DNA of 64,000 bases. Origin: Acidobacteriota bacterium (GTDB lineage Bacteria > Acidobacteriota > UBA6911 > RPQK01 > G965218465). The notes below the pieces were generated by a model. It did not search any database and was not told the DNA's origin. It was given only the letters and a program-made list of their open reading frames with translations. This document shows, piece by piece, positions 3,151 through 64,000 of the stretch. The DNA is taken from contig OZ244623.1 in assembly GCA_965218465.1 (NCBI GenBank), positions 2,735,152 through 2,799,151 on the forward strand, written 5' to 3'. The first letter of the stretch is position 1. Every line of letters begins with the position of its first letter. The position numbers were made by a program, and so were the translations under genes.

Positions 3151-4623
3151 TCAGGCCAGCAAGTCGTGGATGATCTCCCCGTGGACGTCGGTGAGCCGCA
3201 TGTCGCGACCGCTGTAACGATAGGTAAGGCGCTTGTGGTCCAATCCCAAAAGGTGAAGCATGGTGGCGTGGAGATCGTGGACATGGACTTTGTTTTCCAC
3301 GGCGAAGTAACCATATTCATCGGTAGCGCCGTAAACCAAGCCCGATTTGAACCCTCCTCCAGCGACCCACATGGTAAAGCCAAAGGGGTTGTGATCTCGA
3401 CCGATTTCCTCTGTAGTGTGGGAAATTTGAGCCGTGGGTGTCCGGCCGAATTCTCCACCCCAGATGACGATCGTCTCGTCCAGCAGCCCTCGGCTCTTGA
3501 GGTCTTTAATGAGTGCTGCGATAGGCTTGTCGGTGGCACGAGCGTTGGTGCGGTGGTCTTTGATAATACGTTGGTGCTGATCCCATCGGTCTACGCCTTC
3601 GCGCCGGGGCGAAAGCAGCTCGACGAAGCGCACTCCCCGCTCAATCATCCGTCGGGCCAACAAACACTGGCGTCCGAACTCTTCCGTTTCAGGGTCGTCC
3701 AAGCCATACATTTTCTTGGTGCTCGGGCTCTCGCTTTTAAGGTCCAGTAGTTCCGGGACTTCCACCTGCATTCGGAACGCCAGCTCGTAGTTGCTGATGG
3801 TCGCTTCCAGCTGGCTCACGTGGCCCATCCGCTCGAGATTTCCCCGATTCAGCCGCTTGATCAGGTCGAGTTTGTTGCGTTGCAACTGGGCGGTGCTCTC
3901 ACGCGGCTGGAGATCGGCAATCGGCTGTTTGCCTCGACGAAACAGCATTCCCTGATAGGAGGCCGGCAAGAACCCGTTTCCGAAGACATCCACTCCACCG
4001 GGAGGAATCAACCCGCTATCCAGTACGATGAAGCCGGGAAGATTCTGACATTCGCTCCCCAATCCGTAGGTGACCCATGAGCCCATACTGGGACGACCCT
4101 GGAAACCTGAGCCGGTATGCATGAAAAAGTTGGCGGCCGTGTGTTCGGAATGGTTGGCCCACATGGAGCGAATGATGGTGAGGTCGTCTACGCAGGTGGC
4201 GACATGAGGGAAGAGCTCGCTGACGGCCGCTCCCGATTCTCCGTAGCGCTTGAAGCTGAAGGGGGATGCCAACACCTTGTTGCTGATATTGAAAACGGTG
4301 TTGGGAGTCTTAATACCGATCGGCTGCAGATTCTCTTTGGTCAGTCGAGGTTTGGGGTCGAAAGTGTCAACCTGGGAGGGTCCACCGTCCATAAACAAGA
4401 AAATGACCGACTTGGCTTTGGGGGCAAAGTGGGGTGGCTGGACAGCTAGTGGGTCGCGAATGCGATCGGCCCTTGCGGCCGCCAACGCCAGATCCTCGGC
4501 CAACATGGCTGAAAGAGCCAGTCCGCCAAAGCCATTGGCACAGCGGCAAAGCATCTCGCGGCGGCTGATGCCAGGGCGCGACAGGTCGACACGATGGGGT
4601 CGAGTGGCATAGGTCGATGTCAT
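3151..4623 (-). CDS. DUF1501 domain protein (sulfatase-like fold) with a twin-arginine signal.
   Basis: It has an N-terminal Tat motif (SRREML), a hydrophobic stretch, and the characteristic DUF1501 core (..VIFLFMDGGPSQVDTFDPKP.. WDQH.. GGEFGRTP..). It lies 22 nt downstream of the PSD1 gene. Confidence 0.9.
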   Translation of the reverse strand: MTSTYATRPHRVDLSRPGISRREMLCRCANGFGGLALSAMLAEDLALAAARADRIRDPLAVQPPHFAPKAKSVIFLFMDGGPSQVDTFDPKPRLTKENLQPIGIKTPNTVFNISNKVLASPFSFKRYGESGAAVSELFPHVATCVDDLTIIRSMWANHSEHTAANFFMHTGSGFQGRPSMGSWVTYGLGSECQNLPGFIVLDSGLIPPGGVDVFGNGFLPASYQGMLFRRGKQPIADLQPRESTAQLQRNKLDLIKRLNRGNLERMGHVSQLEATISNYELAFRMQVEVPELLDLKSESPSTKKMYGLDDPETEEFGRQCLLARRMIERGVRFVELLSPRREGVDRWDQHQRIIKDHRTNARATDKPIAALIKDLKSRGLLDETIVIWGGEFGRTPTAQISHTTEEIGRDHNPFGFTMWVAGGGFKSGLVYGATDEYGYFAVENKVHVHDLHATMLHLLGLDHKRLTYRYSGRDMRLTDVHGEIIHDLLA

Positions 4624-4645
4624 GAGTCAGATTCTCACTTGATGA

Positions 4646-7600
4646 TCATTGGATGAAGATGAACTCACTGGAGTTAAACAAAACATGACCCAGGTCGGCC
4701 CAGGGACGAAAATCGTTGGAGGCGGGATCGATCCCGTGATGGTGCTGTTGTTGCTCCAGGAAAGCCATAACCTGATCGATCTCCTTCGGCTGGGGGAGTC
4801 TGGAAAAGGCAGTGAGATACATCTGCTCGATTCTTTGCCGAGGCTGCAGCTTACCGGCAGCGACACCTTTGCCCCAGTGGGACGCTTGTTGGGTGACTAA
4901 CTCGTTGTTCATCAGCATCAGGGCCTGCGAAGGTACGGTAGAAACGCTCCGTCGTCCCAGTGTTGACGTGGGCGTGGGATAGTCGAAGGCCAGGAAGAAT
5001 AAGGGCAGAAAATTGCGCCGGATCTCAATATAGATACTGCGTCGATTGTCCCCATCGAGGGGGCCCGACTCGGGTTTGCCTCGGCCATCGTGATAAGGAG
5101 TGATGAAGGGCACGATGCTGGGTCCGAACAGTCGGCGGTCGAGCTGACCTGAAACGGCCAGGATCGTGTCGCGGATCGCTTCCGCCTCCAGCCGTTTCAC
5201 GGGCATCCGATGCAGCCAAATATTGTCGGGGTCGACAGCAGAAGCCTCAGGGCGAGGCCGGCTTGACATCCGGTAGGTGCTGGTGTTGAGGATCAGTCTG
5301 TGGAGTGCCTTGATCGACCAATCGGCCCCCAAGAACCGAGTAGTGAGATAGTCCAGAAGCTGCGGATGGGAGGGCCGTTTGCCCATCAGGCCGAAATTGT
5401 CAGGTGTCGTTACCAGACCCTGCCCGAAGTAGTGCTTCCAAACCCGATTGACCAGCACTCGGGCAGTCAAAGGGTTCTGGGGACTGGTCAACCATTCCGC
5501 CAGCGCCCGGCGGCCACTGCCCCACTGGATAGGCGCCCGGTTGTCGTTGGCGAGAACCCGCAGGAAGCCACGCGGAACGACTTCACCCAGATTTTGGTGA
5601 CTTCCACTGACATGGATCCGGCTGTCCCGCGGATTCCAATCCACTCCCACCAGGGCAAAGGCGGATTCGGGAATCTGGTCGGCCAGTTTGCGACGTTCCG
5701 TCTGCAAGAGCCGGACCCGGTTGCGACTCTTGTTGTCGAGCAGCATCGCCATCTTTTCGGGGGAGGGAAAAGGCGAGACAGCTTCTTGCAGCCAACGGGT
5801 TTCGCGATCGAAAGCCTCCTTGCCGATGTGACCCAGAAAGAGTTCTTGCAAAGACGCCGATAGCGCCGGCAGTGACTCGACCGGCTGTTGGAGCAGGTCG
5901 ACGACGTGGCGGTTGGGGCCGGCGGCCATTGGGGGTGGGGAGGGAGAATCGGAGAAAATGATGCTGTCGACGACAATATGACCCTGACGGCTTCGATCGA
6001 CAATCTCGATATAAGCCTCTCGCCTGACGCCGAATTCCTCGACCAGTTCGCTTTGCCAGTGCAGACCCTCGCCGGTTGGTAGAAAGTGAAAAGCCTTGTA
6101 GTCGCTGACAACTATGCTGACTCTGAGTTCGGCCTCTTCATCCGCGCCGGTCTCCTTGCTGCCGCCGACTCGGACGTGCACCCACGGTTTGGCCATCTTG
6201 AACCGTTTGGAGGTCAGACTACCGACCCACTCATCGGCGCCTGCGCCAAAGGAGTTGGCGACTCCACTGCCCTGATGGCCCCGTGCCGGCTGGTTAGGGG
6301 GCAGCCGTCGTTGAGGTCCGCCGGCGAACGCCTCCCCGTCGACCGCCCAGCCGGAAAAGTCGATTCGCTCAAAGTCCTCGAAGATCTGATCGCCACGCTG
6401 ACTTTGCAGGGCTGCAGAGGATTCTCCCCGGAGTGACGTTAACTGCGCTGCCAGTTCGTCCCTGACTTCTTCCAGCGGGCGGACCGGCCACTCATTGCCC
6501 CGGTCGGCCAGCCGCGCCACCGGGTGAAAGACATGCTCGGGATCGTCACAGGCTTCCTCCAGGTAGCGCGTCCACACCCACGGCAAATGAGACAGGTCTT
6601 TTCCCTCTCGATGCGACTCCTGCGGGGGATGGCTTTGCCAGATCTGACTGGCCGCTTTGCTCAAATCATCCGTCAGTCGTTCGACCAACTGTTGCCGGGC
6701 TGGGACAAGCTGATCCGCGATCTCGAGGTTAATCTCGAAAATGCGGCTGGCCAGGGAACGCAAGCGGGCGCTACGTTGGGGAGAGTCGATCACTTTCTCT
6801 CGGACGTTGGTGCTGTGGAGAATCCCGGCCATGGCGTAATAGTCGGCGGTGGGAATCGGATCGAACTTGTGATCGTGGCAACGGGCACAGGCGACAGTCA
6901 ACCCCAGAAACGCCTTGCTCAGCACGTCCAACTGGTTGTCCACTTGATCGGCCCGCGACAGGTCGGAGTCGACCGGACTGTTGAGGACTTCGCCAAACCA
7001 GAGAAAACCGGTGCCGATGGGTGATTCCCAGTGGGTCCCGTCCAGGCTGATGCGCTGCTCCGGCAAAAGATCCCCAGCGATATGCTCCCGAACGAATTGA
7101 TCGTAGGGAACATCCTGGTTGAAAGCACGAATGACATAGTCGCGATAACGCCAGGCATCCAGCTTGTCGTTGTCAAACTCGTGGCCGTTGGTTTCGGCAA
7201 AACGCACCAGGTCGAGCCAATGCCGGCCCCAACGCTCGCCATAATGGGGAGAGGCCAGCAAGCGGTCGACGACTTTTTCAAAGGCATCGGGAGAGTCATC
7301 CGCCAGAAAATCTTTCAGTTCGGCGGGCGAAGGAGGAAGGCCGATCAGATCAAAAGTCACCCGGCGCAGGAGACTGGCCCGGTCAACCGGCGGTCCCGGC
7401 TCTAGTCCTTGCTTTTCCAGCCCCGCCAACACAAAGCGATCGATGGGATGGCGCGCCCAACCGGTTTTCCGGACGGGTGGCGGCTCTTCCTCGCTCAGAG
7501 GTTGAAAGGCCCAGAATTCCCGTCCTGCTTCAAGGTCGATCCCGGCGGAATGACCCGCCTCGTCTTCGGCCATCGGCACAGCCTCGGGCAAGGGAGCTTC

Positions 7601-8050
7601 CATTTCAACCCATTCGATCAGACGCTGGATCTTTCGATCCTCGAGTTTGCCGCTGGGAGGCATCCGCAAGTCAACGGCCCCGTAGGAGACGGCCTCGATC
7701 AGCAAGCTCAAATCGGGATAGCCCGGCTCGATCACCGGTCCTTGATTGCCGCCTTTTCGAATCCACTCCGGCCCATCCAGGCGGAGATTTCCCTTGGGTG
7801 GGAGTTCCTGATCGCTGTGGCATTGGTAGCAGTGCTCGGCAAAAATGGGTCGAATATTCTTCTCGAAGAACTCGACTCCCGCCGCGTCCTCTTGCGGCGT
7901 CGAGCGGCCGGCGCCCGCCCAGGTGTCCGGGGCAATTAGAGCGATCGACAATGCCCCGGTTACCAGCGTGTTCACGAGCAAAAAATAAGTTTGGGAGAGG
8001 TCGCGTATTTCTTTTTTGTGATTCTGCTTTGAGATGGTCACGACTTGCAA
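4646..8050 (-). CDS. PSD1-type protein: Planctomycete cytochrome c (PSCyt) + DUF1549 + DUF1553 domains.
   Basis: The 1134-aa ORF has an N-terminal membrane anchor and a CxxCH heme motif in FFEKNIRPIFAEHCYQCHSDQ. The long DUF1549/DUF1553 body is present. This is the classic partner of DUF1501. Confidence 0.9.
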   Translation of the reverse strand: MQVVTISKQNHKKEIRDLSQTYFLLVNTLVTGALSIALIAPDTWAGAGRSTPQEDAAGVEFFEKNIRPIFAEHCYQCHSDQELPPKGNLRLDGPEWIRKGGNQGPVIEPGYPDLSLLIEAVSYGAVDLRMPPSGKLEDRKIQRLIEWVEMEAPLPEAVPMAEDEAGHSAGIDLEAGREFWAFQPLSEEEPPPVRKTGWARHPIDRFVLAGLEKQGLEPGPPVDRASLLRRVTFDLIGLPPSPAELKDFLADDSPDAFEKVVDRLLASPHYGERWGRHWLDLVRFAETNGHEFDNDKLDAWRYRDYVIRAFNQDVPYDQFVREHIAGDLLPEQRISLDGTHWESPIGTGFLWFGEVLNSPVDSDLSRADQVDNQLDVLSKAFLGLTVACARCHDHKFDPIPTADYYAMAGILHSTNVREKVIDSPQRSARLRSLASRIFEINLEIADQLVPARQQLVERLTDDLSKAASQIWQSHPPQESHREGKDLSHLPWVWTRYLEEACDDPEHVFHPVARLADRGNEWPVRPLEEVRDELAAQLTSLRGESSAALQSQRGDQIFEDFERIDFSGWAVDGEAFAGGPQRRLPPNQPARGHQGSGVANSFGAGADEWVGSLTSKRFKMAKPWVHVRVGGSKETGADEEAELRVSIVVSDYKAFHFLPTGEGLHWQSELVEEFGVRREAYIEIVDRSRQGHIVVDSIIFSDSPSPPPMAAGPNRHVVDLLQQPVESLPALSASLQELFLGHIGKEAFDRETRWLQEAVSPFPSPEKMAMLLDNKSRNRVRLLQTERRKLADQIPESAFALVGVDWNPRDSRIHVSGSHQNLGEVVPRGFLRVLANDNRAPIQWGSGRRALAEWLTSPQNPLTARVLVNRVWKHYFGQGLVTTPDNFGLMGKRPSHPQLLDYLTTRFLGADWSIKALHRLILNTSTYRMSSRPRPEASAVDPDNIWLHRMPVKRLEAEAIRDTILAVSGQLDRRLFGPSIVPFITPYHDGRGKPESGPLDGDNRRSIYIEIRRNFLPLFFLAFDYPTPTSTLGRRSVSTVPSQALMLMNNELVTQQASHWGKGVAAGKLQPRQRIEQMYLTAFSRLPQPKEIDQVMAFLEQQQHHHGIDPASNDFRPWADLGHVLFNSSEFIFIQ

Positions 8051-12436: not shown

Positions 12437-12787
12437 ATGACAAGGGTTCGAGTTCTTTACTGGAAAGAGATCCCGGTACAGATTGAAGCCGAAGATGAAA
12501 ACGATCGGGTCTCCCGCCCGCTTGAGGATCGTTTTCAAGAGGCCATTGACAGGATCGCCATGTTCGACGGGAGCGCGGGAAGCGACGATTATTTGGAATC
12601 TTGGTCGTGGAGCGAGTATCGGAACGTAGCCGGAGATGCGCAGCAAGCAGCGGAGACTCTGGCGGAGCGCTACAATCGAGCCTTTCCCCAGAATTTCGAA
12701 TCGAAAATCAAAAGGCTGCACAGGTCCGGGCGCCGCCGACCGTTCCCGGGAGCCCTGGACCAATGGCTCACCCAAGCCGGCGAATGA
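12437..12787 (+). CDS. Small acidic hypothetical protein immediately upstream of the ferredoxin-ASKHA gene.
   Basis: The 116-aa ORF starts MTRVRVLYWKEIPVQIEAEDEND and is co-directional with the next gene 39 nt downstream. The competing minus-strand ORF 12161..12817 is Pro/Arg/Ser-rich, as expected for antisense of GC-rich coding DNA. Confidence 0.5.
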   Translation: MTRVRVLYWKEIPVQIEAEDENDRVSRPLEDRFQEAIDRIAMFDGSAGSDDYLESWSWSEYRNVAGDAQQAAETLAERYNRAFPQNFESKIKRLHRSGRRRPFPGALDQWLTQAGE

Positions 12788-35900: not shown

Positions 35901-37304
35901 TTGAAACTTGAGGCTCGACAGGCAAGAATCTTGCTAGGAATGAGAAGTCTGGAAAGGCTACTGGTTAGCTTGGTCTTGAGCCTGTTGTTGGGGTGCCTCA
36001 TGGCGGCCCAGCCTAAGCCCACCGAAAACGCCGAAAGGCCCAATCTTCTTTTGGTTACCTTCGACACGACGCGAGTCGATCGGCTGGGCTGTTACGGTTA
36101 CCGGGAGGCTCAGACTCCAGCTATCGACCGCCTGGCTGCTGAGGGAGTGCTTTTCGAAAAGGCCTACGCCCAAGCTCCCCAAACACTCCCCAGCCACTGC
36201 AGTCTGTTCACCGGTCTTTATCCGATTACGCACAATGTTCTCAGTAACGGCCAGCGACTAAGTGACGAAGCCTGGACCTTGGCAGAGATTCTAAGGAGTC
36301 AGGGTTACCGTACGGGAGCGGTAGTGGCGGCTGCCCCGCTAATGGAGGTGTTCAACCTTGATCAGGGCTTTGGATACTATAACGATACTTTCAAAGAATC
36401 TACCTTGGTTAGCGGCTTCAAGGCTTTCTTGCGAATGTTTACTTTTCAAAAGGTCAATCTGCCGACTTCCAAACACGCGCTGGATGTGACCCGGACAGCA
36501 AGACAATGGCTGGCGCGCAGGGCTCGGGACAAAAAACCGTTTTTTCTCTGGGTCCACTATTTCGACCCTCACCACCCTTACGAATTCCATCCGGACTTCG
36601 AAAAGGCTGCGGTGTTAAGCGAAGGGAAAGGGAACGAGTATGGCGAGAAGGAGGCAAACTACATCAACGAGATTGAGTTTGCCGACTACCAGTTGGGCAA
36701 GCTGCTGGATTTTATGGATCGGCGGGATCTGACCCAGAATACGCTCACAGTCTTTACCACCGATCACGGCGAGAGTCTGGGCGAGCATTCTTACCGTGGA
36801 CACCGCCAGGAAATCTACGAGAGCATTATTCGTGTTCCACTAATTTTGCGAATGCCGAATCGCCTTGCGGCAGGTCGGCGGCTGGCGACTCCTGCCATGT
36901 CGATCGACGTCTTGCCCACCGTGCTTCGACTGCTGCAGATCCCCTATATACCCAGCTCGTTTCAAGGCAAGGACCTACTGGCCCTTTCGGTCGACAAGCC
37001 TCGCAAGATTTACTCGTTAGCTGTCAAGTTGTTTACCAAGTCCCCGACCAGGCGCTCTCTCATCTACGACGACCTCAAGTTCATTGAATACGACAATTCT
37101 CAGAAAAATGCGCTTTTCGATCTTCGAGAAGATCCCGGGGAAACGGTCAACCTGCTTCATCTTGATCATGCCGCGGCGGGCAGGCTCGACTGGCTAGAGG
37201 AAATTCGCGAGTGGTTCCGTCGCGACGGCAGATTGGAGTTCAGTGACTTTCGCATGACGAAGGAGCAAATCGAGCGTCTCAAGAGCCTCGGCTACATTCA
37301 TTAG
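35901..37304 (+). CDS. Sulfatase-like hydrolase/transferase (alkaline-phosphatase superfamily) lipoprotein. Thr sits at the formylglycine position.
   Basis: It has a lipobox LLLGC and sulfatase-fold N-terminal motifs. Against the canonical ..PVCTPSRAALLTGRYP.., this protein has ..PQTLPSHCSLFTGLYP.. (C to T, R to H). It may start at MRSLERLL (35940). Confidence 0.8.
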   Translation: MKLEARQARILLGMRSLERLLVSLVLSLLLGCLMAAQPKPTENAERPNLLLVTFDTTRVDRLGCYGYREAQTPAIDRLAAEGVLFEKAYAQAPQTLPSHCSLFTGLYPITHNVLSNGQRLSDEAWTLAEILRSQGYRTGAVVAAAPLMEVFNLDQGFGYYNDTFKESTLVSGFKAFLRMFTFQKVNLPTSKHALDVTRTARQWLARRARDKKPFFLWVHYFDPHHPYEFHPDFEKAAVLSEGKGNEYGEKEANYINEIEFADYQLGKLLDFMDRRDLTQNTLTVFTTDHGESLGEHSYRGHRQEIYESIIRVPLILRMPNRLAAGRRLATPAMSIDVLPTVLRLLQIPYIPSSFQGKDLLALSVDKPRKIYSLAVKLFTKSPTRRSLIYDDLKFIEYDNSQKNALFDLREDPGETVNLLHLDHAAAGRLDWLEEIREWFRRDGRLEFSDFRMTKEQIERLKSLGYIH

Positions 37305-56705: not shown

Positions 56706-57635
56706 GTGAGTCCTCAGATTTTCCGCTTGGCGGTGTTATTTCTCACCCTTACACCAGTTGCGGCGGCTGCGTCACGGCAGGCCCGCTATCTGAACTTTTC
56801 GGCGGTCAACAAGCACGGTATCTTCTTACGGGATCTCGATCCGTCGGAAGTCAAGCTGCTCATCGACCAGCGACTGGTAGAAATCCGTTTCTTGGGTTCT
56901 CAAAATGTTTCGACCGCAACCGTTTTCCTGATCGAAAACAGCCCGCGAACCGCCCAGTACAACGTTAGCATGCCTCATCTCGGTCGTATCAACACGATCG
57001 ATCGGGTTCGTTTCCACCTGATGGACGGATTTATCGAGTCGATGGTCAAGGTAGGGCCGGTGCTCATTGCCGAGTTCTATCGGGAATTAGAGCTCCTGCA
57101 TGACTTTACCGATCGAGATTACAGTTTGGTGGAGGCGCTGCGGAGACTTAAACCCAAGGTAGCGTATTTGGATAAAGAGAACATCCCGGTTGCCAGAAGC
57201 ATCGGGTGGGGCGCCGACCTGTTGCGAAACCGTCCCGAGAAACGCAAGCTGCTGGTCCTGTTCACGACCGTCGTCGATCGCGAGTCCCTTGCCAACCTGG
57301 ACGAATACAGGGAGATGCTCCGTGACTTGGATCTTGATCTCTATGTAGTCTCTTTTGCCTCCAGGGCTTCCGGCGGTATTGGCTATACACACACTGAGCG
57401 GGCCAACCGGTTCTTCTTCAAGGAACTTACCGACGAGACCTCGGGGCGCTTCTATTTGTCAGGCGAATACGCCTACAACTATGAGTTTCTCGAGGACCTG
57501 AGGGCCCGCCTGACCAACCTCTACACTATTGGCTTTTACGTACAACCAAGCCCCAAGCCTGAGACCCATAAAATTCGCCTTGAGATCGATCGACCGGGCT
57601 GTGACATTACTCATCGTAAAGTGTTGATCTACTGA
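56706..57635 (+). CDS. Secreted hypothetical protein (possible degenerate VWA-like fold).
   Basis: It has a GTG start and a signal peptide (MSPQIFRLAVLFLTLTPVAAAAS). A beta-alpha segment (KRKLLVLFTTVVDRESL) hints at a VWA-like fold without a clear MIDAS. Confidence 0.55.
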   Translation: MSPQIFRLAVLFLTLTPVAAAASRQARYLNFSAVNKHGIFLRDLDPSEVKLLIDQRLVEIRFLGSQNVSTATVFLIENSPRTAQYNVSMPHLGRINTIDRVRFHLMDGFIESMVKVGPVLIAEFYRELELLHDFTDRDYSLVEALRRLKPKVAYLDKENIPVARSIGWGADLLRNRPEKRKLLVLFTTVVDRESLANLDEYREMLRDLDLDLYVVSFASRASGGIGYTHTERANRFFFKELTDETSGRFYLSGEYAYNYEFLEDLRARLTNLYTIGFYVQPSPKPETHKIRLEIDRPGCDITHRKVLIY

Positions 57636-57974
57636 TTTGGCTCCGCCAGCGAGGAGTTGCCTCCCGAAGGCATTCAAGGCTGGGTTTGCTTGGACACAAG
57701 AAGGTCCGTCAGCATCGGCATGTCCGCGTCGCTGTCAGCCGCGTTGAAGAACATGATTCCCTTGCGGGCGCCCTCTTTCCCCCGAACTGCCCTAAGACAG
57801 CACAGTTCGTCGGGGTGTCGCCTGGGAAGCACGCTGGGTTGCCCGTGTGGGAACGGTTGGCCGGGGCGGGGAAGGTGATCACAAGGTGCGCCCCCCACGA
57901 GATGAAGAACAGGCAAGAAGGCCGGGTGGACGCCTGCCACAGATGGCAAATCTATCCCGTCCATTTCCGGGAAG

Positions 57975-60900
57975 TCACCGTTCCACCGGCACCACCGGCA
58001 GCGTGGTGAAGATGCCGTTGCCGGCATCCAACTCCACTGCCACTCCCGTGAACTCTCCCTCGGCCGTGCAACGCACCAACCCCACGAAGTCCGTCGTGTC
58101 GGTACGGGTGAACACCTCTTCAATGAAGCGGCCATCCTGACCGTTGACCTCCAGAGTGATCTCTTCCTCTTCCAGCACTTCGCCCTCTTTCATCAGTTGG
58201 CAACTGACCACCAGCTCTTCGGCTTCCAGGTTGCGGATGGCTGCTGCGGTACTGATGCCTCCCTCCTGTCGCCGGGCCGGAAAGAGGGCATCCGTTAAAG
58301 GTTGACCGGTTCCCACTCCGGCCACTCCAACCCCCGGCAGGTCGAAGCGCAGCACCCCTCCGATGGGACCTTCGGCAACCACCCTGACCGATCCCGCCAC
58401 CACCTCTCCTTGACCGTGGGTGGAAATCGTCACTGCCTCCAGCGGTTCCAGCTCGTTCTGAATGGTTAAGCCTCCGTCCTCTGCCACTTCCAGCTCTCCC
58501 GTGACCTCCAGCACCGATTGGGCTGCAATCCTTTCGCCTGCCCGATCGTAGAAGTAAAAGCTGGGACGGGTGGGAGGAATGGGCGTCGTAAAGGGACCGG
58601 CAGGACGACTCGGCCGGATGGACACATTGACCAACACCAGATCGGAGGTAATGGAAGCACCATTGGCGAAGTGGGCAAAATCAAGGGTGTACTCCCCGCC
58701 TCTGAAGACCGTCCGGTCCACCGGCAGCACCGGCAAGGTGGTGAAGATCCCGTGGCCGGCATCCAGCTCCACTGCCACTCCGGCAAACAGTTTTCCCGCG
58801 GGTGCGGTGCAGCGCACCATCCCCACAAAGTCTGACGTGTCGGTCGTAGTAAACACCTCTTCGATAAAGCGGCCATCCTGCCCCTTGGCCTGCAGCTCGA
58901 TGTCCACTTCTTCCAGCACCGCGCCCTCTTGCATCAACCGGCAACTGACTACCAGCTCCTCCTCTTCCAGGTTGCGGATGGCTGCCGCCGTGCTGATGCC
59001 TCCCTCCTGCCGCCGGGCCGGAAAGAGGGCATCTCTTAAAGGTTGACCGGCTCCCACTCCGGCCACCCCACCCCCCGGCAGGTCAAAACGCAGCACCCCT
59101 CCGATGGGACCGTTGGAGAGGACCGTCACCGATCCCGCCACCACCTCCCCTTGACCATGGGTGGAAATCGTCAGTGCCTGCAGCGGTTGCATCTCACTTT
59201 GAACAGTCAAGCTTCCGTCCTCGGCAATCTCCAGCTCTTCGGTGAGCTCCACTACCGACTCGGCTGCAATCCTTTGCCCTTCCCGGTTGTAGAAGTAAAG
59301 CCAGGGACGGATGGGATGGGGAGCGACGTTGACCAACACCAGATTGGACGTAATGGAAGAGCCATTGGCGAAATGGGCAAACTCCAGTCTTCCCACTCCC
59401 GGAGTCACCTCGATCTGGTGGGAAGAGCTGCCGGCGCCGGCCCCGCTGACCGCCCGCACCTGCAAGACGTAAAGCCGGCCGTTGACCAGCTCGGTGACCG
59501 TATGAGTGGTCTCGGTCGACCCGGTGGATATCCAGCCCCTGCCCGACCTGCTGATCAGATACTGGTAATCGGCAATCGCAAAGCCGCCGTCGTCCTCCGG
59601 CGCCTCCCAGGAGAGTGTCACCTGCTCGTCTCCACCCACCGCTTCCAGATTCCTGGGCGCTGACGGCACCGGGTTGGGAACGGGAGGGGGACCGCCGCCG
59701 CCGGGAGGTGGAGATGGCGTCGTCTGCACCGTCTCCACACCACCATAGCCCAGGGCGTTCACCCCCCGCACTTCGAACACGTATTCCCTGCCGTTCGTCA
59801 GGTTGGGCACCGTCGCGGCCCTCTCCACCGGGGCAACCCTTATCCAGTCGCCGGACATCCCGCCGGGCTCCGTCCAGCGGTATTCGTAGCGGACGATCGG
59901 AGCGCCGCCGATGTTCTGCGGGGCATTCCATCTCAGCGTCACCCGGCCGTTGCCAGTGCTGGCCGTCAGACCGATCGACGAGATCGGCACCGTCACCCCC
60001 GGCGGCGCCACTCGGACCGCAATAGTCGCCGCCTCGTTCGGCCTGTTGTCTACGACCGATGTCACTCTGTTCGCACGCACTGAGATTGTGAGGGTGTAAT
60101 TGTGTGCCACACTTGCGGTCCTCGGGGCCACGGTGGTGGTGAATATCCGGTCATCCGTGGTCTGCAATGCCGTAATGGTTGGATCGCAGGAAACCGGGTT
60201 GTTTGCGCTATCCGTACAGGGAGGTTCCTGCTGCGTAGCAATATCGTCGCTGGTGAAGCCCCTCACCGCCTCCGAAAAGCTGAACCGGAACGTGAACGGA
60301 CCCTCCACCGGCGTCGGCGGGTCCGTTGTCATCTGAACCCTCAGCGGGACGATGGTCCTCCCCTCGCCCGGCTCCGACCAATTACTCCTCCCTTCCTCGT
60401 TGCTCGCCCGCACCTGCACCTGGTAGACCGTGCCCTCTTTCAGTCCCGTGAGCATCGCCGTCAGGGCCGGGCTCTCGTGCTGCGCATCGGTGAAGACGCC
60501 GCTGTCGCCGTCCCGGTACTGCACGTCGTAGTCGGTGATGGGCGGCCCGCTATTGTCCGGTTCTCTCCAGCTCACCCTCAGGCTGTCCTCCGTCTCCCCT
60601 GAAAATGTCGGAGCTTCCGGGACACCCGGCGGTTCCCGCTCGTTGCTCACCCTGACCGTAATCACCTGCTCTGCCGTCAGCTCCCGGTCCCCAGCGCCAC
60701 TGGTCACGCGCGCCGTCACCACGTACTCGTTGTCCTCCGCCCCGCTCGGCGGATCGCTGCTCACGACATCGGTGGGGAACTCATAGTCCGGCGCCTCCTG
60801 GAAACTCAGATCTCCCGTATCGGAAGCGACCGTAAACTGCGACCGGTCAACCCCGCCCACGATCGCCCAGCCCGTCACCTCGTCCCCTGGGTCGACATCC

Positions 60901-63900
60901 CTCGCCGTCAGCCGGGTCACCCGCGCCTGATTCTCAGTGACCTCGAACGGCCCCCGGCTCGTGATCTCCGGAGCCGTGTTGGGCGCCCCTGTGGTGTTGG
61001 TCACCGGTTCGTTGCTCAGTCCCAGAGCGTCGTTGCCCACCGCGTCCCGGATCGGGTTCGTCCCCGGACTGTAGCTCACCCGAATCCCCGTCTCCCCATG
61101 CTCCACCGCCGGGTCGAGGGTCAGTTCCACCGCGCTCCCGCTTACCGCAACGTTGGTGACGCTCCGCTCAGCGCCCTCGACATTCACCGTGAAGTCCCCT
61201 GTCCCCGGCCTCGAACTCCCGTCCAGAGCCTCTCCGTAGGTCAGCGTCAGTTCGGCCTCGTTCACCGCCGCGCTCTGAAACACGGGCTTGACCCCGTCCA
61301 TTCTGTGAGCCGCATCGGCCGCCAATCCGTCATGGTCCAGTACGGCGTCATTGTCCGCGCCGTCCTGGATGGTCCCCCCGTTCAGGTCAATGCGGCCGGC
61401 AGCAATGCTCACCCCGTCGGTGTCTTCGTCCCCCAGGGCCACCTCGTAGCCGAACACCGGCGCCGACGTGCCACTGCCTCTCAGGTAGCCCGCCGGCCGG
61501 TTCCTGCTTCCTACCTCGAGCCTCAACTGCGGTGTCTTGGTCACCGCCACCGTCTCATCGAACGTCACCGTTACTTCGATCACATCGCCCACGCCATAAG
61601 TCTGGTTCGTCCCCGGACTCGAGGTGATCTCGATTCCATCGATCATTGGCGCCGCCGTGTCCGGCGTATCGTTCCTTACCGTCTCGTTGCTCAGTCCCAG
61701 AGCGTCGTTGCCCACCGCGTCCCGGATGGGGTTCGTCCCCGGCGTGTAGCTCACCGTGATCCCCGCCTCTTCGTGATCGGCTCCCGAATCCAGGGTCAGC
61801 TCCACCGTCGCGCCTCGAACCGCGACCCGGGTGACTGTCCGCACATGATCGGCCCCCGCAACCGTGAAGTCATCCGTCTCCGGCGTCGAGCCCCCGTCCA
61901 GCGTTTCGTTCCAGGTCAGCGTCAGCGTTGCCCCGTCCACCACCGCGCCGCCGGTGACGGCCAACTCCGGCTTGACCCCGTCCACCTTGTGGCTCGAATC
62001 AGCCGCCAACGCCTCATGGTCCAGTACGGCATCATGGTTCACGCCGTCCCGGATCGTTCCGCCGTTCCGGTCGATGCTGCCGGTAGCAATACTCACCCCG
62101 TCGATGGCCAGGTCGCCGCTCGCTACCGGGTAGGCGAACACCAGCGTTTCGCTGTTCGAACCGCGGTCGTAGGTCGCTGGCTTTGTCTGCGCCCCCACCG
62201 TCAGGGACAACCCCGGCCGCCCCGTCACCACCACGGCTTCATCGAATGTCACCGTCACCTCGATCACATCGCCGGGAGCGTAGATCGCATCCGGCCCCGG
62301 ATTCGAGGTGATCGCCACCGTGCTCACCACCGGTGCCTTGGTATCCACCGGGAACACCTCGCTCGCCGCCAGGTTGCCGTTGCTCAAAGCGTCCACCACC
62401 GCCCCCGCCGTCACCGTCACCCTCACGTCATCCTCAATGCCGGCGTTCGGCGTGATCTCGAGGGTGTAGACCGCACCCGCGCCCGTGAAGTTCGACCCCC
62501 TACCGTTGGTCACCGCGATCTCGCTCGCTTCAAGACCCATTACCAGCTCCGAAAAGGTGATCGTCACCGTGAACCCGTCCTTGGTCGGATGGGTCGCACT
62601 GCTCGTGATCGACGCCACGACCGGGCCTGTGGACCGGGCAGGGATGATATGCGAGTCGGGAACTTCCGTCAGCACGGTTCCGTCAGCGGTGCAGATGCCG
62701 TCCGAGGCGCAGGGCTGGCCGGCAACCAGGGCGAAGCTAATCGGGCCAACGCCCGTGGGAGTCAGGGTGAAGAGATAGGCATTGGCCGGGTCTCCAGGCG
62801 CGACATGGGGGCTGATGCCGGCGATCGTCGCGCCGGTGACGCTGACCGACGTCGTATCTGCAGCAAAGTCCACCACGGGCCGGCTGAAGGCAACCGCCAC
62901 CTTCGGTGCATCGGTCGGGCCGAGATGGAATAGGGAACTGGCAGGACTCTCGACGATCTCCGCCGTCAGCGGGCCGGGCGTGTCCGCCAGCGCCACGAAC
63001 TCCACCGGGTAGGCCCGGGTGGTCCCGGCCTCATTGGGGCCAGCGTAGTGGTCGGGATGCGTGATCTTAAAGGCAAGCAGTTCTTCGTTGGTGAGTGGAT
63101 CGACCTCGGTCACTGACGCGTCCGAGACACGAGACGACGTGCCGCGGCCCCAACTGATCAGCCAATGGCCGCTGTCCATGCGATGGATGTGGCCCTGGGA
63201 TCTCGAAACCCGATCACAGGTGTTGCCCGAGCAATGCTGGCGCACAAAGACCGCCTCACCGTTGTCGGGGTCGAGCGCATACTCCACGCCGCGGCTGAAC
63301 TCCGAATTCGGTCGTTGGGTGTCGCCCGTCTCCGGGTCTTCAAGGCAGTGGTTGCCGTTGTCGAAGAGCAGGAGATGCCCGTTGGGTATCAGCCGGGCGG
63401 AATGCTGCCCGCAGAACTCTCCGTGGGGATCGCCGACGATCTTGAGCGTCCGAATGCCGTGCGCCTCCCACTCCGCGTCGCTCCGGTTGCTCCGTCCCAA
63501 CAGCCATTCCCCGGCTCCCGTTTCGCGGTCGATCCGCCACACCTGCGAGCAGCCGCGGAAAGAGGCGATGATGTCCGCCTCGTCCACGACCTGCACCGAG
63601 TTGATGTGGGCGTAATCGATGGGAAACCGGTGCTGGAGACAATCGTTCAGGTACATGTCATCCCACGAGTTCCAGAAGAAGACGCGGCTTCCCGCCGGGT
63701 TCACTTCTTCGATGACCGAGTCCGACGTATTTTCGCTAGTGCCGTATGGATCGCCGTTCTCATCGGTATAGGCGCTGAAGTCACGGATGGCGGGCTCGTA
63801 GGCCTCGAAGACGTAGTTGCCGTTCTCTCTGATCACAAAGTCGTGGGTGCCGGTGTGTTGGAGATCGTCGGTGGTCGTGACCCTCTCCACCACGTCAAGG

Positions 63901-64000
63901 TTCTCGTCGAGGATGACTATTTCAGGGGCCTCCCCGTAGGAGTATGGATATTTTCCGTCGGGGTGGACCTTGAAATGGACCGTACGACTGTTGGGGAGCC
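57975..64000 (-). CDS. Giant repeat-rich secreted/surface protein (>2000 aa; N-terminus beyond the window). Domains: beta-propeller (arylsulfotransferase/ASST-like), Ig-like tandem repeats, cadherin-like domain, three FN3 domains, and two C-terminal ~230-aa tandem repeats of unknown family.
   Basis: The reading frame stays open from the GTG at 63893 to the window edge (..VHPDGKYPYSYGEAPEIVILDENLDVVERVTT..). Recognisable elements are ..NGHLLLFDNGNHC.., the repeats (APVVSTVAITSNPG..GDVIEVTVTFDEAV.. x2; ..SYTPGTNPIRDAVGNDALGLSNE.. x2), a cadherin-like segment (..LTARDVDPGDEVTGWAIVGG..FTVASDTGDLSF..), FN3 units (..LRVSWREPDNSGPPITDYDVQYR..) and two repeats beginning (L[ED]FAHFANG.SITS.LVLVNV..). 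Confidence 0.85.
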   Translation of the reverse strand, partial: LPNSRTVHFKVHPDGKYPYSYGEAPEIVILDENLDVVERVTTTDDLQHTGTHDFVIRENGNYVFEAYEPAIRDFSAYTDENGDPYGTSENTSDSVIEEVNPAGSRVFFWNSWDDMYLNDCLQHRFPIDYAHINSVQVVDEADIIASFRGCSQVWRIDRETGAGEWLLGRSNRSDAEWEAHGIRTLKIVGDPHGEFCGQHSARLIPNGHLLLFDNGNHCLEDPETGDTQRPNSEFSRGVEYALDPDNGEAVFVRQHCSGNTCDRVSRSQGHIHRMDSGHWLISWGRGTSSRVSDASVTEVDPLTNEELLAFKITHPDHYAGPNEAGTTRAYPVEFVALADTPGPLTAEIVESPASSLFHLGPTDAPKVAVAFSRPVVDFAADTTSVSVTGATIAGISPHVAPGDPANAYLFTLTPTGVGPISFALVAGQPCASDGICTADGTVLTEVPDSHIIPARSTGPVVASITSSATHPTKDGFTVTITFSELVMGLEASEIAVTNGRGSNFTGAGAVYTLEITPNAGIEDDVRVTVTAGAVVDALSNGNLAASEVFPVDTKAPVVSTVAITSNPGPDAIYAPGDVIEVTVTFDEAVVVTGRPGLSLTVGAQTKPATYDRGSNSETLVFAYPVASGDLAIDGVSIATGSIDRNGGTIRDGVNHDAVLDHEALAADSSHKVDGVKPELAVTGGAVVDGATLTLTWNETLDGGSTPETDDFTVAGADHVRTVTRVAVRGATVELTLDSGADHEEAGITVSYTPGTNPIRDAVGNDALGLSNETVRNDTPDTAAPMIDGIEITSSPGTNQTYGVGDVIEVTVTFDETVAVTKTPQLRLEVGSRNRPAGYLRGSGTSAPVFGYEVALGDEDTDGVSIAAGRIDLNGGTIQDGADNDAVLDHDGLAADAAHRMDGVKPVFQSAAVNEAELTLTYGEALDGSSRPGTGDFTVNVEGAERSVTNVAVSGSAVELTLDPAVEHGETGIRVSYSPGTNPIRDAVGNDALGLSNEPVTNTTGAPNTAPEITSRGPFEVTENQARVTRLTARDVDPGDEVTGWAIVGGVDRSQFTVASDTGDLSFQEAPDYEFPTDVVSSDPPSGAEDNEYVVTARVTSGAGDRELTAEQVITVRVSNEREPPGVPEAPTFSGETEDSLRVSWREPDNSGPPITDYDVQYRDGDSGVFTDAQHESPALTAMLTGLKEGTVYQVQVRASNEEGRSNWSEPGEGRTIVPLRVQMTTDPPTPVEGPFTFRFSFSEAVRGFTSDDIATQQEPPCTDSANNPVSCDPTITALQTTDDRIFTTTVAPRTASVAHNYTLTISVRANRVTSVVDNRPNEAATIAVRVAPPGVTVPISSIGLTASTGNGRVTLRWNAPQNIGGAPIVRYEYRWTEPGGMSGDWIRVAPVERAATVPNLTNGREYVFEVRGVNALGYGGVETVQTTPSPPPGGGGPPPVPNPVPSAPRNLEAVGGDEQVTLSWEAPEDDGGFAIADYQYLISRSGRGWISTGSTETTHTVTELVNGRLYVLQVRAVSGAGAGSSSHQIEVTPGVGRLEFAHFANGSSITSNLVLVNVAPHPIRPWLYFYNREGQRIAAESVVELTEELEIAEDGSLTVQSEMQPLQALTISTHGQGEVVAGSVTVLSNGPIGGVLRFDLPGGGVAGVGAGQPLRDALFPARRQEGGISTAAAIRNLEEEELVVSCRLMQEGAVLEEVDIELQAKGQDGRFIEEVFTTTDTSDFVGMVRCTAPAGKLFAGVAVELDAGHGIFTTLPVLPVDRTVFRGGEYTLDFAHFANGASITSDLVLVNVSIRPSRPAGPFTTPIPPTRPSFYFYDRAGERIAAQSVLEVTGELEVAEDGGLTIQNELEPLEAVTISTHGQGEVVAGSVRVVAEGPIGGVLRFDLPGVGVAGVGTGQPLTDALFPARRQEGGISTAAAIRNLEAEELVVSCQLMKEGEVLEEEEITLEVNGQDGRFIEEVFTRTDTTDFVGLVRCTAEGEFTGVAVELDAGNGIFTTLPVVPVER
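57978..59400. repeat. Near-identical ~710-740 bp direct tandem repeat (x2) inside the giant gene, encoding the duplicated C-terminal domain.
   Basis: The protein repeats are >80% identical over about 225 aa. Parallel spurious ORFs recur at about 735-nt offset on both strands (for example 57674..58135 vs 58466..58876, and 58518..58835 vs 58570..59046). Confidence 0.8.

Follow-up and report, generated by a model that had tools for sequence, protein, structure and literature searches.

A tandem C-terminal domain shared by a large, lineage-restricted family of modular proteins in uncultured Acidobacteriota

A 64,000-nucleotide stretch of the genome of an Acidobacteriota bacterium (contig OZ244623.1, positions 2,735,152 to 2,799,151; hereafter the window) ends inside a giant gene on the minus strand, whose product would be a Sec-exported, modular extracytoplasmic protein of ~2,700 amino acids (aa) made by an uncultured bacterium. 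The last ~560 aa of this protein are one FN3 domain followed by two ~225-aa all-beta copies of a domain, here called R1 and R2, and this arrangement is constant across a very large paralogous family, while the parts in front of it (the passengers) vary. For the terminal domain the best description is a large domain family that is new and restricted to this lineage, in a known kind of role, and the passengers are made up of ordinary domains from known families. The data favour, at a probability of about 0.5, a reading of the C-terminal pair as a shared anchoring or targeting cassette in general; that the cassette would specifically be a glycan-binding foot is held, on the predicted model, with lower confidence.

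The C-terminal repeats and their family

R1 (aa 1537-1761, 225 aa; 58716..59390, minus strand) and R2 (aa 1771-2007, 237 aa; 57978..58688, minus strand) are 72% identical as protein (E 9e-109) and 79% identical as DNA. An earlier note on this DNA, made from the sequence alone, had described two ~230-aa C-terminal repeats belonging to no recognised family, and both parts of that description are borne out. Each copy carries the motifs FAHFANG, TISTHGxG and GPIGGVLRFD, an invariant Cys pair (C150, C194) and the ending IFTTLPVVPV, which, with the tandem position at the C-terminus, define the proposed family. R2 also has the 13-aa Pro-rich loop insertion of its class and closes the protein with ...TTLPVVPVER. 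The invariant Cys pair would be compatible with, and fits, an oxidising extracytoplasmic location. No further copies of the domain were found elsewhere in the window.

The profile searches that the earlier note called for returned no Pfam, NCBIfam or PDB-sequence match to R1 or R2, even at E <= 10. Fifty aligned relatives, the class consensus sequences and the most divergent members likewise gave nothing significant in Pfam at E <= 10, the best, chance-level matches among members and consensus being DUF5719 (E 0.016) and DUF7490 (E 0.026), and a profile of the family alignment (A1) reached no better than E 1.4 against the PDB. As the earlier note had also stated, known sorting signals are missing: no model for a PEP-CTERM, LPXTG or MYXO-CTERM signal matches the C-terminal region, and the C-terminal sorting domain of the type IX secretion system (T9SS; TIGR04183 / PF18962) is absent from the Pfam and NCBIfam results. 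The sole MYXO-type match in NCBIfam, NF045522, lies on an FN3 domain and scores 27 bits against a 150-bit cutoff. There is no Pfam match to the autotransporter (type V secretion system) barrel PF03797, and fold searches gave sandwiches and no membrane barrel; the domain is, moreover, duplicated, and the protein ends in ...PVER rather than in an aromatic residue. The C-terminus itself (...GIFTTLPVVPVER) contains no hydrophobic helix. An internal duplication within one repeat was considered and rejected, as hhalign comparison of N-half and C-half profiles gave a probability of 0.3%, which is not significant; the likeness of the two halves is by eye only (FAHFANGxxITSxLVLVN against FPARRQEGGISTAAAIRN, that is, FAHFANG...N against FPARRQ...N).

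To estimate family size, 1.84 billion proteins, each representing a cluster at 50% identity, were searched exhaustively with phmmer, which placed the domain in 1,343 clusters at E <= 1e-3, 921 at E <= 1e-10 and 338 at E <= 1e-30. The closest representatives are 84-87% identical to the domain of the window protein, and the sequence of the repeat pair is 55-87% identical across at least 31 species-level genomes. A word-indexed protein search returned 882 clusters, none with a Pfam annotation on the C-terminal domain. Among the matches listed from that search (P0001-P0120), all 120 are shorter than 400 aa and many begin part-way through the domain, such as at a Met within it; the representative of cluster P0013 is 391 aa long, yet the same cluster holds a 1,274-aa member (P0268). 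Word-search match lengths therefore understate true gene lengths. A taxonomic scan in which each of 185,579 species was represented by a single genome found 137 relatives, and the best 80 of these 137 correspond to 75 distinct genomic loci. All 75 are in metagenome-assembled genomes (MAGs) of Acidobacteriota (labelled Acidobacteriota, Terriglobia, Bryobacterales or Acidiferrales); ~31 genomes are represented, a single genome contributing as many as nine loci, and 18 of the 75 contain more than one cassette gene.

Exactly two copies are present in 125 of the 147 best-scoring representatives and one copy in 20, and in 123 of the 147 the last copy ends no more than 15 residues from the C-terminus. 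The nearest relative of an R2 is another protein's R2 in 87 of 107 cases, and that of an R1 another R1 in 82 of 107; R2 typically has the Pro-rich loop insertion of ~13 aa. R1 and R2 are thus distinct positional classes, which implies that the pair is passed on as one unit. The family consensus has an FN3 domain directly in front of the pair, and full-length members start with a signal peptide. The passengers of 43 representatives span 61 different Pfam families, with fn3 in 30 of the 43, LRR in seven, SWM in six, Calx-beta in five and, in fewer, reprolysin, CARDB, NHL, trypsin, cadherin and others. In the full-length proteins P0123, P0124 and P0134, regions resembling subtilase, Spondin_N and a sugar-dehydrogenase propeller were judged by eye, and Spond_N was confirmed by Pfam in the strain loci described below. 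Of 91 representatives ending in the terminal motif TTLPVVPV, 54 have a 7-residue tail after it that ends [STDP][QR]E (e.g. PERMSQE) and 25 have a tail of 1-2 residues; the window protein, with ER, is of the latter class.

AlphaFold2 modelling of R1 with 49 relatives gave a confident all-beta structure of ~17 strands at a predicted local distance difference test score (pLDDT) of 89.6. The R1-R2 tandem reached a pLDDT of 93.7 and a predicted TM-score (pTM) of 0.89, so that a fixed orientation of one copy relative to the other is predicted. In Foldseek searches against the PDB the repeat had no full-length match (TM about 0.2), and its sole convincing match was to Thermotoga maritima TM1070 (1nc7), which covers about half a repeat (~118 columns) with a probability of 1.0, a target-normalised TM-score (TMt) of 0.69-0.73, a root-mean-square deviation of 3.2-3.7 Å and 11% identity. 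The tandem matched only generic sandwich strings in the PDB (alpha2-macroglobulin, C3; TM <= 0.17), and the BFVD viral structures yielded nothing useful. Because of the strand pattern and the half-length TM1070 match, we read each modelled repeat, R1 included, as two 8-stranded beta-sandwich subdomains and the pair as four such sandwiches in one rigid body. TM1070 is a member of the ASRAH superfamily (Anabaena sensory rhodopsin transducer homologues; Pfam ASRT), for which sugar binding is predicted; the superfamily has extracellular versions that are duplicated and is related topologically to the carbohydrate-binding module (CBM) family CBM4-2 by circular permutation (PMC2739507). An 8-stranded sandwich superposable on TM1070 is present as one subdomain of the predicted model. 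The earlier guess of a lectin-like or jelly-roll fold is thus partly upheld: half of each repeat matches a sandwich from a predicted sugar-binding superfamily.

The complete gene and its variation between strains

The reading frame runs on the minus strand from the window edge to a stop codon at 57975-57977 and is open up to base 64000 (translation of window:57975-63998). Read from 63998, the visible part of the gene (57975..64000) comprises 2,007 sense codons and ends in a single stop; the open reading frame (ORF) list entry begins at the first in-frame GTG (63893; 1,972 aa), which is the residue numbering of the earlier note. That note had proposed that the gene is 5'-truncated, with its true N-terminus and signal peptide past 64000, and a sister strain shows this to be the case. 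The strain, L077, was found via the neighbouring 309-aa protein (56706-57635), which has an identical sequence on eight contigs. L077 is 98.5% identical in nucleotides to the window over the whole 10-kb overlap; its gene extends 695 codons further upstream, and the 695-residue extension consists of a Sec-type signal peptide (…FLALLSVPGFNGFAHA/K), then a Spondin_N (Spond_N) domain and cadherin-like repeats. The full protein is therefore ~2,700 aa long and exported across the inner membrane; the window encodes its last 2,007 residues, and the 5' end of the gene lies ~2.1 kb past the window edge. Just upstream of the gene start in sister strains (L077 19899-20930, past the window edge) there is a HigB-like toxin with a helix-turn-helix antitoxin. 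No secretion genes are found in that upstream region, where the earlier note had advised looking for a co-localised secretion system, and none are co-localised with the window gene.

Four strains (L076-L079) have a common nuo-atp-ccm-309aa block and a different convergent gene at the adjoining site (window 57636-64000; locus coordinates 11270 onward), and in all four the same 3' end is kept at the same 3' coordinate. L077 carries the window's version (~2.7 kaa), in which a single extra C (C to CC; L077 ~12489-12550, equivalent to window ~59629) splits the gene into products of 2,300 and 426 aa. Either a genuine mutation that makes a pseudogene of it or an assembly error in a homopolymer could account for this 1-bp insertion. 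In the window, all 2,007 codons are read without interruption and the copy is intact also where L077 is split; the earlier note had named frameshifts on resequencing as a sign of a pseudogene. L079 encodes an intact protein of >3,346 aa with an extra purple-acid-phosphatase/metallophosphatase module. L076 has a 1,553-aa protein with a faint Glug match and fn3 domains, as well as reprolysin/Calx-beta and Spond_N genes upstream, and its homology to the window protein ends at ~aa 1111, the boundary between the cadherin-like and first FN3 domains. In L078, a circular 3.17-Mb contig, only a 279-aa remnant is present and shares just the last ~85 codons.

The genes flanking this site are almost identical between the window and L079, with synonymous divergence (dS) of 0.002-0.009 and nonsynonymous divergence (dN) of about 0, whereas dS in the giant gene is 0.03-0.26, 10-50x that of the flanks. 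Within the gene dN/dS falls from 0.77 in the ASST part to 0.21 in R1 and 0.09 in R2. The terminal cassette is under purifying selection, and the passenger part is swapped or deleted between near-identical strains. Together, the divergence of the gene and the near-identity of its flanks identify it as a recombination and diversification hot spot, in which conservation and selection fall on the terminal cassette. Such swapping of cassettes between strains at one fixed place in the chromosome amounts to a natural experiment in surface-protein diversification.

Passenger domains and genomic neighbourhood

Pfam, NCBIfam and self-comparison of the window protein confirm the ASST-like propeller, the two Ig-like pairs and the three FN3 domains that the earlier note had listed; all features of the protein are on the minus strand. 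An ASST-type (arylsulfotransferase family) beta-propeller occupies aa 26-313 (63060..63923) and belongs to the arylsulfotransferase family PF05935 (Pfam call at aa 39-313, E 2.3e-19; 70.1 bits against a 24.2-bit cutoff, profile positions 79-364 of 374), with a second Pfam match to PF14269 (E 7e-12; 45.7 bits against a cutoff of 27). It is followed by a bacterial Ig-like domain, Big_12, at aa 462-546 (62361..62615; PF19078, E 2.6e-14) and by two tandem ~228-aa units at aa 552-782 and 780-1009 (60972..62345), which windowed self-comparison found to be ~60% identical, making them two copies of an Ig-plus-SWM unit. The two SWM_repeat copies are recognised by Pfam (E 1.5e-23; best stretch 902-980) and by NCBIfam TIGR02059. 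The cadherin domain of the earlier note, at aa 1018-1117 (60648..60947), is retained as cadherin-like only: PF00028 matches it at E 5.5e-6, and the score of 27.1 bits is below the 28.8-bit cutoff.

PF00041 matches three stretches within aa 1127-1533 above its cutoff (E 9e-39, 132 bits): FN3-1 at aa 1127-1212 (60363..60620; the best Pfam fn3 stretch), and FN3-2 and FN3-3 at aa ~1344-1428 and 1451-1533 (59400..59969), which form an internal repeat with 38% identity in self-comparison. Between FN3-1 and FN3-2 lies an unassigned region, aa 1213-1340 (59979..60362), which has no Pfam match and a homologous stretch in P0134. FN3-3 is directly N-terminal to the repeat pair, as in most family members. 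Elsewhere in the window, a 1,134-aa PSCyt1/PSCyt2/PSD1 (DUF1549/DUF1553) protein with an adjacent DUF1501 protein is encoded at 3151-8050 on the minus strand, and a separate sulfatase at 35901-37304 on the plus strand; together with the giant protein's ASST-type domain, they hint that sulfated compounds are metabolised.

The variable gene is separated from the ccm cluster by the 309-aa ORF (56706-57635, plus strand), whose product starts with a signal-peptide-like segment and is not matched by Pfam. Otherwise the window is unremarkable chromosomal DNA, with genes for ClpB, UvrB, an EPSP-synthase-family enzyme and an M50 site-2 protease, as well as nuo, atp and ccm genes. The earlier note had called the position of the giant gene next to the ccm cluster curious. 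A functional link was considered and rejected, since the genes converge, sister strains have other genes at the site and paralogues elsewhere adjoin mobile-element genes; the adjacency is coincidental. When the ORFs of the 75 loci (±8 kb) were clustered, the recurrent neighbours were ArdC-ankyrin(-metallopeptidase) fusions (16 loci), RepA (RepA_C), IS5/IS256/IS3 transposases, VirB4/TraG-like ATPases and CagX/VirB9. This suggests that cassette genes are carried on, or inserted beside, integrative conjugative elements.

Possible roles of the pair and known systems

Hundreds of proteins with signal peptides and unrelated passengers end in one constant, rigid and selected cassette, a pattern characteristic of a shared module for anchoring or targeting. 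According to this reading, the variable front of the window protein (Spondin_N, cadherin-like repeats, ASST propeller, Ig/SWM pairs, another cadherin-like domain and FN3) would be the passenger and may act in adhesion or enzymatically on extracellular or matrix substrates. Packed together, the two repeat copies would form a rigid body of four sandwiches that serves all family members as a foot, holding exoproteins with nothing else in common at a single partner or directing them to it. This partner would most likely be a glycan of the cell's own envelope or matrix, making the foot a non-covalent anchor, or possibly a host matrix; a non-covalent, multivalent, glycan-binding foot is favoured because of the ASRAH-like subdomain. 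Alternatively, the foot may be a recognition surface for export or attachment machinery. The cassette may also double as a recombination handle for passenger swaps between strains, given that its DNA is conserved among paralogues. The earlier note had seen in the protein an adhesin or enzyme scaffold with a novel terminal binding module. The module is indeed uncharacterised, but anchoring or targeting fits a constant cassette of at least 1,343 clusters better than a binding tip specific to this protein.

Several observations weigh against an anchoring or targeting cassette. The link to ASRAH is at fold level only, with 11% identity and no Pfam ASRT match at E <= 10 for R1, R2, other members or the consensus, and the TM1070 match is not pinned to one particular half of the repeat. 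Four members (P0140, P0135, P0203 and P0253) have domains C-terminal to the pair, so that the pair need not be terminal. Beside the 75 loci only mobile-element genes recur, and no gene for secretion, glycan synthesis or a sortase-like protein does.

A more far-reaching version of the anchoring and targeting reading is offered tentatively. FN3 and the tandem cassette together might be the address label of an undescribed protein-display system in a probably host-associated clade of Acidobacteriota, the foot being recognised by, or binding, a specific envelope component and so displaying dozens of eukaryote-like and enzymatic passengers, while also serving as recombination handle at hot-spot loci.

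Among other explanations, the pair could be a strict secretion or sorting domain recognised by a dedicated outer-membrane translocation or attachment apparatus, like the T9SS C-terminal domain, and perhaps then be removed or covalently linked. A C-terminal module common to dozens of paralogues per genome, under strong purifying selection and attached to unrelated passengers, would be expected from this, the short [STDP][QR]E tail of 54 of the 91 members with the terminal TTLPVVPV motif is in its favour, and surveys of sponge MAGs call the delivery route of eukaryote-like proteins unexplained (PMC8163846). Known sorting domains, however, are much smaller than the pair with its ~470 aa and four sandwiches; models for T9SS, PEP-CTERM and other sorting signals do not match it, partner machinery is not recurrent beside the genes at the 75 loci, some members have domains after the pair and the window protein lacks the 7-aa tail, which makes such a role unlikely. 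One member, P0138, consists of a signal peptide and the repeat pair alone, with no passenger in front, which speaks against a strictly terminal export signal and accords with the anchoring or targeting reading. The same protein would be readily understood if the pair were the business end, a lectin-like module for a host or environmental ligand, each protein being an adhesin or enzyme scaffold aimed at that ligand and not at the cell's own surface. The ASRAH-like subdomain has a fold for which sugar binding is predicted, binding would be multivalent with four sandwiches in each protein, and matrix-type passengers (spondin, cadherin, FN3, NHL, LRR) and degradative enzymes would gain from substrate targeting as they do with CBMs. 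Yet the link to sugar binding is at the level of fold only and covers half a repeat, and the uniformity of the pair (55-87% identity across at least 31 species-level genomes) suits a conserved self-ligand at least as well; this alternative is similarly doubtful.

It is improbable that the pair is a self-association module through which members co-assemble into a surface lattice or multi-enzyme array of S-layer or cellulosome kind. A rigid tandem of duplicated two-sandwich domains (pTM 0.89), present in many paralogues per genome, would suit co-assembly, and the Methanosarcina S-layer protein, with its tandem two-subdomain DUF1608 repeats, can be likened to the R1-R2 tandem; the argument is nevertheless entirely analogical, and no fold match to S-layer, cohesin or dockerin structures was obtained. 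Disfavoured most strongly, to the point of being very improbable, is that the gene is a decaying pseudogene or assembly chimera with repeats that have no function. The split gene of L077 (2,300 + 426 aa) and the 279-aa remnant, all that is left in L078, would agree with decay, but the window copy is uninterrupted over 2,007 codons, L079 is intact for >3,346, dN/dS in the repeats is 0.09-0.21 and the domain is conserved in >1,300 clusters.

A domain that occurs in >1,300 clusters and is fused to >60 kinds of extracellular passenger is thus without a curated family, a solved structure or an assigned function. Should it prove to be the anchor or targeting module that these proteins share, it would give a handle on the display of cadherin, FN3, LRR, NHL, spondin and protease modules in these Acidobacteriota, and a simple sequence marker with which to catalogue the surface and secreted proteome of these uncultured bacteria.

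Sponge-associated MAGs, including those of Acidobacteriota, are enriched in multidomain proteins with cadherin, FN3, LRR, NHL and ankyrin domains, and how these eukaryote-like proteins are delivered has been left open (PMC8163846). The passenger repertoire of the present family matches this, and ankyrin-ArdC genes and mobile elements are frequent neighbours here; the difference is that for these MAGs host association is something we infer only. A shared C-terminal cassette is not mentioned in the sponge-MAG literature retrieved, and no paper linking spondin, sponge and Acidobacteria was found. At the level of fold the nearest relatives are the ASRAH proteins, whose 8-stranded, ~115-aa beta-sandwich resembles about half of one repeat. 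In the family of the window protein, by contrast, a 225-aa unit combines two fused sandwiches and itself occurs twice, and the FAHFANG, TISTHGxG and GPIGGVLRFD motifs and the Cys pair are specific to it.

Within the same phylum, TIGR03437 (Soli_cterm, the Solibacter C-terminal domain) is a ~200-aa C-terminal domain of many paralogous secreted proteins in one acidobacterial lineage. Its NCBIfam model does not match R1 or R2 at E <= 10, and no paper on it was found. The T9SS C-terminal domain of Bacteroidota is likewise a conserved C-terminal beta-sandwich on many Sec-exported proteins with unrelated passengers and many paralogues per genome. It differs in being a single sandwich of ~80-100 aa, compared with the 470 aa and four sandwiches of the cassette pair, and in belonging to another phylum; its hidden Markov models do not match the pair, which is occasionally internal, and a PorU/PorV-type partner was not seen for the cassette. 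S-layer homology (SLH) domains and CBMs such as CBM4 are repeated small modules (beta or alpha/beta) at one terminus that tether diverse enzymes and adhesins to a glycan, although neither has a sequence or significant fold match to the cassette. By analogy, the logic of the cassette, one constant module carrying many unrelated passengers, would be comparable to that of the T9SS C-terminal domain, SLH domains, dockerins and CBMs.

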